NCBI RefSeq assembly: GCF_003334335.1
Contig: NZ_QOWQ01000027.1
DNA length: 64,000 nt
Strand: one strand, 5' to 3'
Origin: Escherichia coli
GTDB lineage: Bacteria > Pseudomonadota > Gammaproteobacteria > Enterobacterales > Enterobacteriaceae
Of this stretch, positions 39,407 through 52,696 are shown piece by piece. How positions within the stretch are numbered: position 1 is the first letter of the stretch; each line of letters opens with the position of its first letter. A model generated the notes under the pieces. That model worked only from the letters and a program-made list of their open reading frames with translations. It had not been told where the DNA came from and made no database searches. A program made the translations under genes and the position numbers.

Positions 39407-40480
39407 ATGGCAAAGAAAAAAAGAACCCGCTGGCAGCGGCGGCCAGGCACGACGGGCGGCAAATTACCGTGGAATGACTGGCGCAATGCCACGACCTGGC
39501 GTAAAGCGACGCAATTATTACTGTTGGCAATGAATATTTATATTGCCATCACGTTCTGGTATTGGGTGCGCTATTACGAAACGGCAAGTAGCACGACATT
39601 TGTCGCCAGACCGGGAGGTATCGAAGGCTGGCTACCGATTGCCGGTCTGATGAATCTGAAATATAGCCTTGCAACAGGTCAGTTACCGTCCGTCCACGCC
39701 GCCGCGATGCTGTTATTGGTCGCTTTTATCGTCATCAGTCTATTACTCAAAAAGGCCTTTTGCTCATGGTTATGCCCGGTTGGTACGCTTTCTGAATTAA
39801 TCGGCGCTCTCGGTAACAAACTATTTGGTCGGCAATGTGTCCTTCCCCGCTGGCTGGATATTCCTCTGCGCGGCGTAAAGTATTTGCTGTTGAGTTTTTT
39901 TCTCTATATCGCGTTATTGATGCCCGCTCAGGCGATTCACTATTTTATGTTGTCGCCCTACAGCGTGGTGATGGACGTTAAAATGCTCGATTTCTTTCGT
40001 CATATGGGGACCGCGACATTAATCAGCGTGACCGTTTTGCTGATTGCCAGCCTGTTTATTCGCCATGCCTGGTGTCGTTATCTTTGCCCATATGGCGCGC
40101 TGATGGGCGTGGTTTCGCTATTATCGCCGTTTAAGATTCGTCGCAATGCCGAAAGTTGTATCGACTGTGGCAAATGCGCAAAAAATTGCCCATCACGGAT
40201 CCCGGTCGATAAATTAATTCAGGTACGAACAGTGGAATGTACCGGCTGTATGACTTGCGTAGAGTCATGTCCGGTAGCCTCAACATTGACCTTTTCACTG
40301 CAAAAACCTGCGGCAAATAAAAAAGCCTTTGCGTTGTCTGGCTGGTTAATGACGCTACTGGTTCTGGGGATTATGTTTGCGGTGATTGGTTACGCAATGT
40401 ATGCGGGAGTATGGCAAAGCCCGGTGCCGGAGGAATTGTACCGACGCTTAATTCCACAAGCGCCAATGATTGGTCACTAA
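39407..40480 (+). CDS. yccM: YccM, predicted membrane 4Fe-4S ferredoxin-type protein
   Basis: 357 aa ORF with CxxCxxCxxxCP motifs and TM helices, recognised as YccM. Confidence 0.88.
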   Translation: MAKKKRTRWQRRPGTTGGKLPWNDWRNATTWRKATQLLLLAMNIYIAITFWYWVRYYETASSTTFVARPGGIEGWLPIAGLMNLKYSLATGQLPSVHAAAMLLLVAFIVISLLLKKAFCSWLCPVGTLSELIGALGNKLFGRQCVLPRWLDIPLRGVKYLLLSFFLYIALLMPAQAIHYFMLSPYSVVMDVKMLDFFRHMGTATLISVTVLLIASLFIRHAWCRYLCPYGALMGVVSLLSPFKIRRNAESCIDCGKCAKNCPSRIPVDKLIQVRTVECTGCMTCVESCPVASTLTFSLQKPAANKKAFALSGWLMTLLVLGIMFAVIGYAMYAGVWQSPVPEELYRRLIPQAPMIGH

Positions 40481-40528
40481 ATTAGCAACAAGCGGAACAT
40501 CACCTCGCACGGGGTGATGTTCACAAAA

Positions 40529-40702
40529 TCACATTATTTTGATTTTGACATCATAACTTTCAAGCCCGGTCATTTTTTCTCGTGCGGTGAAGCGAATTTC
40601 AGAGACTTCTTTCCCTGTATTCTTGTTCAGCTCGGCGATTTTTTGCGCGATAAAGTCGGCGATTTCCGTTTCGGCTTGTTTTTTTAACTCTTCAATATTC
40701 AC
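40529..40702 (-). CDS. gnsA: GnsA, small protein (57 aa), GTG start; absent from the ORF track
   Basis: Translated by hand from the reverse complement: VNIEELKKQAETEIADFIAQKIAELNKNTGKEVSEIRFTAREKMTGLESYDVKIKIM, stop TGA at 40529-40531. Confidence 0.8.
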   Translation of the reverse strand: MNIEELKKQAETEIADFIAQKIAELNKNTGKEVSEIRFTAREKMTGLESYDVKIKIM

Positions 40703-40922
40703 TGTTAACCTCTTCTGGTCTTAAAAGACAGCAACACGCCAGTAAGGTGTTGGTTCCCGGTACCCTGGTCAGGTAAGAAATGTTATAAGCCATCTCCCCG
40801 AAAGATTCAATAATCAACAGGTTATCGCTTACTATACATACAGCGTTGAAGAAAAATAAGGCAGATATAAAAAAGGCTCCACGAGGGAGCCTGATATTAT
40901 TTTGTGAAATCCAGCGGCGCAT
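40692..40922 (-). CDS. ymcE: YmcE-like small membrane protein, overlapping the gnsA start
   Basis: Track ORF 40692-40955; start tentatively at MRRWISQNNIRLPRGAFFISALFFF; identity from position and memory only. Confidence 0.5.
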   Translation of the reverse strand: MRRWISQNNIRLPRGAFFISALFFFNAVCIVSDNLLIIESFGEMAYNISYLTRVPGTNTLLACCCLLRPEEVNSEY

Positions 40923-41095
40923 GGTCAGTGCGTATTTGCAGCACGACGTTATCAAAGGTGATCATCGTCGATTTACAAAAAATACACTTAGCGCCCAAAG
41001 GGTTTCGCTCCGTCACATCGAATGCCGATGTGCGGTACTGTGAACCATGACAACATGGACAGCGGAAATGGAGATGTTGAGTAATAATGGCAACC

Positions 41096-41308
41096 TTAGA
41101 GCGTAACAACGTTCGCTGCCGCGGGGCCACGTTGCCCCTGCTCAATAGAAAATTCAACTTTCTGATTTTCGTTCAGCGTGCGGAATTCATTGCTCTGGAT
41201 GGCGGTGAAATGGACGAAAACGTCTTTGCTGCCATCATCAGGAGTGATAAAGCCAAAACCTTTATCTGCGTTAAACCATTTTACTAAACCAGTCATTTTA
41301 TTAGACAT
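41096..41308 (-). CDS. cspG: CspG, cold-shock protein
   Basis: 70 aa [24 protein letters not shown] recognised as CspG. Confidence 0.95.
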
Positions 41309-41593
41309 ATTTTACTTCCTTCATTTTGGGCCTTTCGGCAAACAGGGCTTTAATACAGAAACTACTTAGTGTTCAGGAGAGAGACTCAAAAGAAGGGGAT
41401 AATGCCTGATAATGAGAACTGCTTTAGTAAACTACTTTGTATGCTGTCTGTCTTTCAAACCGACGCAGCTATTAACGCATGATAATTGAGATTAAGCAAA
41501 TTTTATTTTAGCCGTCCGGCGGTCTTAAATATCGCTGGCTTTATTTTATTAACCCCGTATAGTGCAGCGCAGTATTTTCAGTAAGGAATTTGT

Positions 41594-41806: not shown

Positions 41807-42247
41807 TATGACGCTGCTTGTTTAAAGCTGACTGGTTTTATTGGAATAGTGCAATAGTCAACATCATACATTATAACATCAGTTACTTTTCCACAAAGAA
41901 ACTAATCCATTTAAGCGAATATCTCTGCACCTAATAGTTACAAATGCCATTTAACAGCCAGTTATAGTACCACTTGAAACTATATTACCAACAATAATTA
42001 ATAGCTTTCGTAACAATTTCCTTATCTTTAATTTGTATTTTGCTAAGATTTATCTTATGCTCACAAGTCGTATTTCCAGAGGGGGATAGTTAACAATCTT
42101 ATATTTCCCTCTGCGCGCCTTTCCTACCCGCAGTATATAGTGCAAGCGGTATGAGGAAAGGGAGATTTCACAAGGATGTTATACTCAAAGTAGACAATCC
42201 TGATCTCAAGCGTACGTATTGTCCATGCGATGAATAAAGGAAAAGTT

Positions 42248-42553
42248 ATGAAACACAAGCTTTCTGCAATCCTTATGGCCTTCATGTTGACGACGCCAGC
42301 TGCGTTTGCTGCCCCTGAAGCAACAAACGGGACCGAGGCAACGACGGGTACTACTGGCACCACAACGACCACTACCGGCGCAACCACGACTGCTACTACC
42401 ACTGGTGGCGTGGCTGCTGGCGCTGTCGGCACGGCGACAGTTGTCGGTGTGGCAACGGCTGTTGGTGTGGCGACGTTGGCAGTTGTTGCAGCAAATGACA
42501 GTGGCGATGGCGGTTCTCATAACACCTCAACCACCACGTCCACTACACGCTAA
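42248..42553 (+). CDS. gfcA: GfcA, Thr-rich small protein, first gene of the group 4 capsule operon
   Basis: Start refined to ATG 42248 (MKHKLSAILMAF) with aagga SD; signal peptide plus Thr/Gly/Ala low-complexity region; 101 aa. Confidence 0.88.
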   Translation: MKHKLSAILMAFMLTTPAAFAAPEATNGTEATTGTTGTTTTTTGATTTATTTGGVAAGAVGTATVVGVATAVGVATLAVVAANDSGDGGSHNTSTTTSTTR

Positions 42554-51454: not shown

Positions 51455-51547
51455 TTAACTTTTCAGACGCGGGTCCAGCCATACCAACACAAGGGTGGAG
51501 AGCGAACACATCAACAAAATGCCGACGAACCAAAGTAAATACCACAT
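51455..51547 (-). CDS. appX: AppX, 30-aa small membrane protein of the cytochrome bd-II operon; absent from the ORF track
   Basis: Translated by hand from the reverse complement: MWYLLWFVGILLMCSLSTLVLVWLDPRLKS, between appB and appA. Confidence 0.8.
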   Translation of the reverse strand: MWYLLWFVGILLMCSLSTLVLVWLDPRLKS

Positions 51548-51559
51548 TGTTTCTGCTCC

Positions 51560-52696
51560 TTAGTACAACTCGTTTTCGTTACGGCGGAGAGTTTCTGTTG
51601 TCATGCGCCCCCACATTTTGTAGTAGCTCCAGAGAGTGTAGAGCAACACAATGGGCAAAAATATCAGCACGATTACCAACATAATGCTCAGCGTCAGCTG
51701 ACTGGAAGTACTGTCCCACAACGTCAGGCTGGAGATCGGACTCACGCTTGACGGCATGACAAAGGGGAACAGCGTGATGCCTGCCGTGAAAATCACGCCA
51801 AATTGCATCAATGATGCCATCAAAAATCCCCAACCCGGGCGACCACGATAAATCGCCATCACCGTCAGCAATGGGCAGAAGAATCCCAGCAGCGGGAAGA
51901 TCCACAAAACGGGCGACTCGACAAAATTATTCATCCAGGCACCAGGTAGCACTGCCACCAGTTTCATTAACGGATTGGAAGGACCGTTAGCATCCTGGGC
52001 GAGCAGTACAAAGCCATCAATACCGACCCACAGCCAGTAACCCGCCAGCAAAAAGCACAGCATCACCAACAGTGCAGCGCGTTTGGTCGCCAGCTGTGAA
52101 CGCAGATGAATCACACCAACAGTTTTCAGTTGTAACCAGACGCCACCTTGCAAAATCACCATCCCAAGGCTGAGCAATCCGCACAATAAAGGGAATGGCG
52201 TCAGCAGTTGCCAGAAGCTGCCGAGATACTCCACGCGTAATTGCGGTGTGAAGGCAAACGGCACGCCGAGCAACAAGTTGCCGAAGGCGATACCGAAGAC
52301 TACCGGCGGCACCAGACTGCCGATGACCAGACCGGCGTCCCACATTTTACGCCAGCGTGCATCGGCGATTTTTCCGCGATAATCAAAGGCCAGCGGGCGG
52401 AAGAACAGTGAGCACAGCACCAGGATCATCGCCACATAAAAGCCGGAAAACGCCGCTGCATACACTCTGGGCCAGGCGGCAAATAATGCCCCACCAGCGA
52501 GGATCAACCAGACCTGGTTGCCTTCCCAGTGTGCACCAACGCTGTTTATCACTATCCGGCGTTCATCATCATTACGCGCCACCAGCGGCAGCAGACAGCC
52601 GATCCCCATGTCAAATCCGTCGGAGATCATAAAGACCACCAGGATCACGCCAATCAGCAGCCACCAGATGAAGCGCAATGTTTCATAATCAAACAT
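51560..52696 (-). CDS. appB: AppB, cytochrome bd-II oxidase subunit II
   Basis: 378 aa multi-TM ORF recognised as AppB. Confidence 0.95.

Follow-up and report, generated by a model that had tools for sequence, protein, structure and literature searches.

Two questions are raised by this locus: whether the short frames gnsA and appX are genuine genes, and whether the frame that gnsA overlaps, ymcE, encodes its functional partner. We addressed them in a window of 64,000 nucleotides of Escherichia coli DNA, which is the whole stretch that was analysed. The original prediction had read GnsA (57 aa, GTG start) and AppX (30 aa, 51455-51547) by hand translation, and had described an 11-nt overlap, in a different frame, between the gnsA start and the 3' end of ymcE. 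Identities, start, lengths, positions and overlap were all confirmed by the ORF list, by identity with proteins of known structure (PDB 4XO1/4XO2 for GnsA, 7OSE/7OY2 for AppX) and by the coordinates and frames of the two overlapping ORFs. Both proteins are shorter than the 60-aa default of the ORF lister, which explains why they were missing from its track, as had been stated. We consider it very probable that gnsA and appX are catalogued small genes, that the overlap with ymcE is incidental and that YmcE is not a conserved partner of GnsA.

Small genes of the cspG cluster and appX

The cluster lies on the minus strand and is read in the order cspG, ymcF, ymcE and gnsA. Its frames, and those around appX, are listed here with the evidence for each in brackets.

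41096-41308, minus strand: cspG, coding sequence of 70 aa that heads the cluster (ORF list, RefSeq, codon-position variation)
40897-41085, minus strand: ymcF, coding sequence of 62 aa with an ATT start and a CxxC...CxxC motif (RefSeq CDS, PF23641)
40692-40922, minus strand: ymcE, ORF of 76 aa with an ATG start, overlapping gnsA by 11 nt and ymcF by 26 nt (ORF list, NF007379, PF15939, RefSeq CDS)
40709-40714, minus strand: Shine-Dalgarno sequence of gnsA, AAGAGG, 6 nt before the GTG and within the last ymcE codons (sequence)
40529-40702, minus strand: gnsA, coding sequence of 57 aa with a GTG start (ORF list, PDB identity, PF08178, RefSeq CDS)
51556-51561, minus strand: Shine-Dalgarno sequence of appX, AAGGAG, 8 nt before the ATG and overlapping the appB stop codon at 51560-51562 (sequence)
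51455-51547, minus strand: appX (cbdX), coding sequence of 30 aa with an ATG start, a single hydrophobic helix (ORF list, structures, NF011333, RefSeq)

Positions 40300-41400 are 99.9% identical to more than 5,300 complete genomes, K-12 included. Here gnsA, ymcE and cbdX are CDS features of RefSeq, in more than 5,390 of 5,426 complete E. coli genomes; the CDS coordinates of gnsA and ymcE in the K-12 RefSeq record match exactly, the appX stretch carries a cbdX CDS in RefSeq records among the matches listed, and the exact protein sequences of these small genes are already named in public protein databases. Thus gnsA, ymcE, appX and ymcF are all known and annotated. At the head of the cluster, the Rfam cspA thermoregulator (RF01766) is matched over its full length at 41042-41464 on the minus strand (159 bits), a match that spans the 5' UTR and coding sequence of cspG and extends into ymcF.

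The strain itself is not K-12, since the IS1D copy that K-12 carries between cspH and gfcA is missing from the window (∼42200-42250). Many sites of yccM also differ from K-12. Within 40300-41400 the sole difference is at position 40943, where Ala48 of YmcF becomes Val (NVALQ to NVVLQ); residue 48 is Ala in most other lineages.

The GnsA translation, MNIEELKKQAETEIADFIAQKIAELNKNTGKEVSEIRFTAREKMTGLESYDVKIKIM (MNIEELKK...KIKIM), is identical at 57 of 57 residues to 'Protein GnsA' of PDB entries 4XO1 and 4XO2. It matches the Pfam family GnsAB_toxin (PF08178) over residues 1-54 of 54 (E 8.4e-36) and PHROG 2301 (E 1e-33). The window gene thus belongs to the GnsA/GnsB family, as a protein identical to, and of the same length as, E. 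coli GnsA; given its identity with the crystallised protein, it is a soluble helical hairpin of 57 aa. Its GTG (40702-40700) and the TGA of ymcE (40694-40692) delimit the 11-nt overlap, GTGAATATTGA, and the two frames differ because their start coordinates differ modulo 3.

The gene that follows cspG is ymcF, which starts 10 nt past the cspG stop and runs into the other end of ymcE. Its product matches the Pfam family YmcF-like (PF23641) over its full length (E 2.3e-49). Members of this family are cold-shock small proteins, and the window ymcF likewise lies directly after a cspA-family gene; we found no difference from the family, its invariant ATT start (see below) being the point of note. 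The original prediction had warned that other small proteins might have been overlooked and might be unannotated; ymcF was indeed overlooked, and is present in RefSeq.

AppX, MWYLLWFVGILLMCSLSTLVLVWLDPRLKS, is identical to chains of the cytochrome bd-II structures 7OSE (chain C) and 7OY2 (chain X), and because the identical chain sits in both it is a physical subunit of the oxidase complex. It scores 80.8 bits against the NCBIfam equivalog NF011333 (CbdX), for a cutoff of 57, and its Kyte-Doolittle maximum is 2.49, over residues 4-22. The gene order is appB (ending at 51560), appX (starting at 51547) and appA, which corresponds to appB / cbdX / appA in RefSeq. In length, in its one hydrophobic helix and in its place directly after subunit II, appX resembles the other CydX/AppX (CbdX) subunits. 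The bd-I paralogue CydX is matched only weakly (6RKO chain X, E 0.009; TIGR02106 below cutoff), as expected of a paralogue. AppX, visible in the cryo-EM complexes, is an accessory subunit of cytochrome bd-II oxidase, and is translated from its AAGGAG site right after appB.

Many ORFs of 20-60 codons arise by chance in the region, and the short frames could in principle be such ORFs that merely resemble known proteins. This reading can be dismissed almost entirely: GnsA and AppX are 100% identical to crystallised or cryo-EM proteins, their family matches are full-length and above curated cutoffs, and gnsA is under purifying selection.

Coding signatures and gene order in relatives

A scan for GnsA in one genome per species returned 13 loci, from six other Escherichia lineages, six Citrobacter species and one Margulisiibacteriota MAG, the last being a weak match (43% identity). 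We aligned the window with the six other Escherichia lineages (seven sequences in all) and compared the variation of the four frames. Firstly, cspG, ymcF and gnsA contain no indel across the seven lineages. Secondly, their variation is concentrated at the third codon position: the variable sites at first, second and third positions number 5/3/23 in cspG (pN/pS 0.06), 3/3/20 in ymcF (0.08) and 7/1/18 in gnsA (0.06). Thirdly, ymcE displays no third-position bias (12/6/10) and its pN/pS is 0.84, so that it fails the test for purifying selection as a protein.

The ymcE frame itself decays between lineages. The ATG is lost in four of the six other Escherichia lineages, being AGG in L003, L004 and L006 and ATA in L005 (L numbers are our labels for loci). 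The AGG allele, natural to E. albertii among others, turns His57 of YmcF into Gln. The frame is broken by 1-nt deletions in L006 and L008 and by deletions of 2 and 1 nt in L007, and it is truncated in L003 by a 6-nt deletion with an internal stop, which makes a frameshift or premature stop in four of the six. An ATG together with an unbroken 76-codon frame is found in none of the six other lineages (0/6). In the original prediction ymcE figured as a normal gene next to gnsA. Although annotated, it is, as the comparative data suggest, the least secure ORF of the cluster and not a conserved coding sequence. As a proxy for relaxed constraint we also considered the sizes of the 90%-identity protein clusters (287, 205, 408, 578 and 155 members), which proved uninformative.

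The same comparison bears on the start of ymcF. Its ATT is invariant in 14 of 14 Escherichia, Citrobacter and phage loci, and at two of them, L011 and that of phage PhiR42_1 (L002), an in-frame stop lies 7-8 codons upstream and no ATG, GTG or TTG intervenes. Initiation at AUU is thus supported comparatively. The ribosome-binding site of ymcF is formed by the csp stop codon and a following GG (TAAGG or TGAGG), 8 nt upstream.

Outside Escherichia, the gene order is informative about ymcE. GnsB is found in the Qin prophage and in lambdoid phages, seven of which were recovered with their gnsB by our tblastn search of phages. In phage PhiR42_1 gnsB shares the csp-linked context, in a module csp - ymcF-like - ynfN-like - gnsB that follows the lysis genes and precedes the terminase genes. 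The ymcF homologue of this phage (PV340562.1; L002 1838-2026), directly after the csp gene, is 66% identical, starts with ATT and is unannotated in the record. The YnfN-like gene (MKKVIVFFNSEPAVVV...) encodes 76 aa, is well conserved and lies, in Citrobacter and in PhiR42_1, between the ymcF-like gene and a DNA block upstream of gns described below. It is absent at the Escherichia cspG locus and at one Citrobacter locus. Thus ymcE is missing from the csp-ymcF-(ynfN-like)-gns arrangement of Citrobacter and PhiR42_1, which shares with the window the block and the Shine-Dalgarno sequence upstream of gns. At the chromosomal cspG locus there is no ynfN-like gene of the kind seen in the phage and in most Citrobacter loci, and the ymcE ORF fills the gap. 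The idea that YmcE is a diverged YnfN was rejected, as blastp shows no similarity between them.

The family of YmcE is narrow. Its matches to the NCBIfam equivalog NF007379 (187 bits, cutoff 163) and, over the full length, to PF15939 (E 1.7e-56) are strong, but the family consists of Escherichia/Shigella-type sequences only, so that a full-length match is trivial. Among 5.8 billion proteins, homologues occur only in 28 Escherichia/Shigella-type clusters, and no relatives were found in phages or PHROGs. In several of these clusters the N-terminus has been replaced or the gene caller has fused the ORF with gnsA.

Two further variants of these frames deserve mention. The Shigella 'YmcE' (P0013, 135 contigs) has another N-terminus, MPHSPEKEPVSCLTDWHY..., joined to the rest at the stretch PRGAFF encoded by a terminator (see below), which suggests a rearrangement or an insertion upstream of that terminator. 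In O157:H7 strain Show KS 470-1 (L018), gnsA has lost 1 nt from its run of seven A residues (window 40679-40685) and is marked as frameshifted by RefSeq; the loss may be genuine or an artefact of sequencing a homopolymer.

Putative regulatory DNA inside the ymcE frame

Two elements were located within the ymcE ORF, in addition to the gnsA Shine-Dalgarno sequence.

40866-40892, minus strand: intrinsic terminator-like hairpin, AGGCTCC-CTCGT-GGAGCCT followed by a T-run, in ymcE codons 11-19 (terminator scan)
40782-40817, minus strand: promoter-like block TTGATTATTGAAT-N17-TATAAC, within the ymcE ORF and upstream of gnsA (alignment of 14 gns upstream regions)

The hairpin begins 5 nt past the ymcF stop. 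Its stems are invariant and variation is confined to the loop. In the same place, the Rfam family STnc220, a Salmonella sRNA candidate, gives a sub-threshold match at 40859-40939 on the minus strand (34 bits, where the gathering score is 60; E 1e-4 for a search of 201 nt), which covers the last ymcF codons and the terminator. This suggests that Salmonella has a stable fragment from the 3' end of the csp-ymcF mRNA.

The promoter-like block emerged from an alignment of the 200 nt that precede each of 14 gns genes. Common to these regions is TTGATTATTGAA ... TTTATAA, of which the window version is TTGAAT (40810-40805), a spacer of 17 nt and TATAAC (40787-40782); in 12 of the 14 loci, the distance from the 8-mer GATTATTG to the gns start codon downstream is 97-116 nt. 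The conserved block escaped a simple sigma-70 promoter scan, as its -10 hexamer has C in place of the final T. For this reason we keep the term 'promoter-like', and the register of the -10 element is ambiguous. The core of the gnsA Shine-Dalgarno sequence, AGAGG, is invariant at 14 of 14 gns loci, including those devoid of ymcE. Moreover, the 127 nt before the gnsA start form the least variable stretch of the cluster, with 7.9% variable columns against ∼15% in the coding sequences. Judged from these alignments, the DNA before gnsA is constrained, though not as a reading frame.

We also looked for RNA structure or a thermosensor in the presumed gnsA leader (40778-40688). Its minimum free energy is -16.4 kcal/mol, with a z-score of +1.03 relative to shuffled sequences, so that no claim is made, and no Rfam family was found in this leader.

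In the organization that we propose, the cold-shock cluster would read cspG, ymcF, terminator, gnsA. The ymcE ORF would span the terminator of cspG-ymcF, the promoter-like block of gnsA and the ribosome-binding site of gnsA; it is intact essentially in E. coli proper only, and evolves like non-coding regulatory DNA rather than like a protein gene. Transcription of gnsA would most likely start from a promoter ∼80-115 nt upstream, possibly supplemented by read-through from cspG-ymcF; its translation begins at its own GTG through the strong AAGAGG sequence 6 nt upstream. Equipped with this Shine-Dalgarno sequence, gnsA looks like a gene independent of its neighbours.

What has been published on gnsA is compatible with such a place in a cold-shock cluster. 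GnsA overexpression is reported to raise the unsaturated fatty acid content and to suppress fabA6 or secG-null mutations (bioRxiv 10.1101/2024.03.27.586906). Plasmids carrying gnsA or gnsB rescue cold-sensitive fadR (p)ppGpp-deficient strains and restore 16:1 and 18:1 fatty acids (bioRxiv 10.1101/2024.03.27.586906). A higher gnsA dosage gives membrane lipids richer in unsaturated fatty acids, in keeping with its position in a cold-shock gene cluster, and this linkage fits a role of GnsA in the upkeep of membrane fluidity under temperature change.

Status of ymcE and of its pairing with gnsA

The catalogued view is that ymcE and gnsA are a toxin-antitoxin (TA) pair. The Pfam families are named GnsAB_toxin and YmcE_antitoxin, the RefSeq product name of gnsA is 'addiction module toxin', and the two genes have been listed as a toxin-antitoxin pair (PMC8484670). 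The arrangement does recall type II TA modules, in which two small adjacent ORFs on one strand overlap slightly and the first of them is called the antitoxin; ymcE and gnsA stand in this order with a small out-of-frame overlap (11 nt). In a genuine type II operon, YmcE would be made first, the overlap would couple GnsA translation to it and the antitoxin would be in excess.

Several observations run against this scheme. Firstly, in type II modules the antitoxin is conserved with its toxin and is under purifying selection, unlike ymcE. Indeed, gnsA remains intact, and strongly constrained by purifying selection, where ymcE is missing, truncated, frameshifted or devoid of its ATG: an intact gns gene without an intact ymcE occurs in the six other Escherichia lineages and the six Citrobacter species (L003-L014), in the phage, and in five RefSeq E. 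coli genomes. The last group corresponds to an allele of strain CUVET18-1475, annotated by RefSeq as a ymcE pseudogene ('internal stop') beside an intact gnsA and present in 5 of 5,415 complete genomes. Secondly, the high pN/pS of ymcE speaks against an antitoxin role. Thirdly, a conserved Shine-Dalgarno sequence and a conserved promoter-like block belong to gnsA itself, and an intrinsic terminator within ymcE precedes that block, both of which argue against a TA operon; again unlike type II modules, ymcE harbours the terminator and the promoter-like block of the gene downstream. Lastly, YmcE has a hydrophobic character (Kyte-Doolittle value of 1.88 for residues 20-38) and no DNA-binding domain was recognised in it, its only Pfam match being the YmcE family. 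We regard a type II operon at this locus as improbable. From the comparative data, we infer that GnsA has no conserved functional partner, or antitoxin, in YmcE; the 11-nt overlap is probably incidental, and the label 'YmcE antitoxin / GnsA toxin' lacks comparative support. An effect formerly ascribed to ymcE, the suppressor activity of 'sfa', was reportedly reassigned to gnsA by Sugai et al. in 2001.

A second alternative is that ymcE arose de novo as a young protein gene specific to E. coli, whose product would be a small membrane peptide made during cold shock through read-through of the cspG-ymcF terminator. In ∼99.9% of complete E. coli genomes the ORF is annotated and unbroken, and it encodes a hydrophobic segment; this intactness is however expected from shared ancestry alone, as divergence within E. 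coli is at most ∼1.5%. An overexpression phenotype exists, the ASKA ymcE clone conferring a mild butanol tolerance (PMC3050900). A precedent is provided by YnfR, a protein of 21 aa encoded between cspI and ynfN of the paralogous Qin locus, whose tagged form was detected following cold shock (PMC6001520). The beginning of YnfR, MKAPSGAFLL... (PSGAF), resembles the stretch LPRGAFF that the terminator encodes in YmcE, and we infer that the YnfR ORF spans the analogous terminator of the cspI-gnsB locus; on that premise, the detection of YnfR after cold shock implies that translation across such terminators occurs. Against a young protein gene stand the lack of detectable purifying selection on ymcE between lineages and the lack of an obvious Shine-Dalgarno sequence before its ATG (the upstream DNA reads ...CAAATACGCACTGACC ATG). 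Evidence of ymcE expression was not found in the accessible literature, and neither the Onc112/retapamulin small-protein preprint nor 'The Cryptic Bacterial Microproteome' names any of these genes in its main text. A young functional peptide is therefore, in our view, unlikely, though less so than the toxin-antitoxin pair.

On balance, we lean towards a third reading, in which ymcE is no functional protein gene but an E. coli-specific ORF that arose over the cspG-ymcF terminator and the promoter and leader of gnsA, after the loss of the ynfN-like gene found at this place in the phage and Citrobacter modules.

For gnsA and appX themselves, nothing new is added to the biology. The locus illustrates how length thresholds hide real small proteins (GnsA of 57 aa, AppX of 30 aa, YmcF of 62 aa), and the ATT start of ymcF would be missed by any standard ORF finder. 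What our analysis adds is a fourth small gene with a conserved ATT start and comparative evidence against ymcE as a conserved coding gene or an antitoxin, a modest correction of annotation that affects the toxin-antitoxin catalogues and models in which ymcE-gnsA is included. If ymcE is non-functional, the 'YmcE_antitoxin / GnsAB_toxin' labels of Pfam and RefSeq would need revision, and gnsA would be a stand-alone gene for adaptation to cold that derives from a phage.
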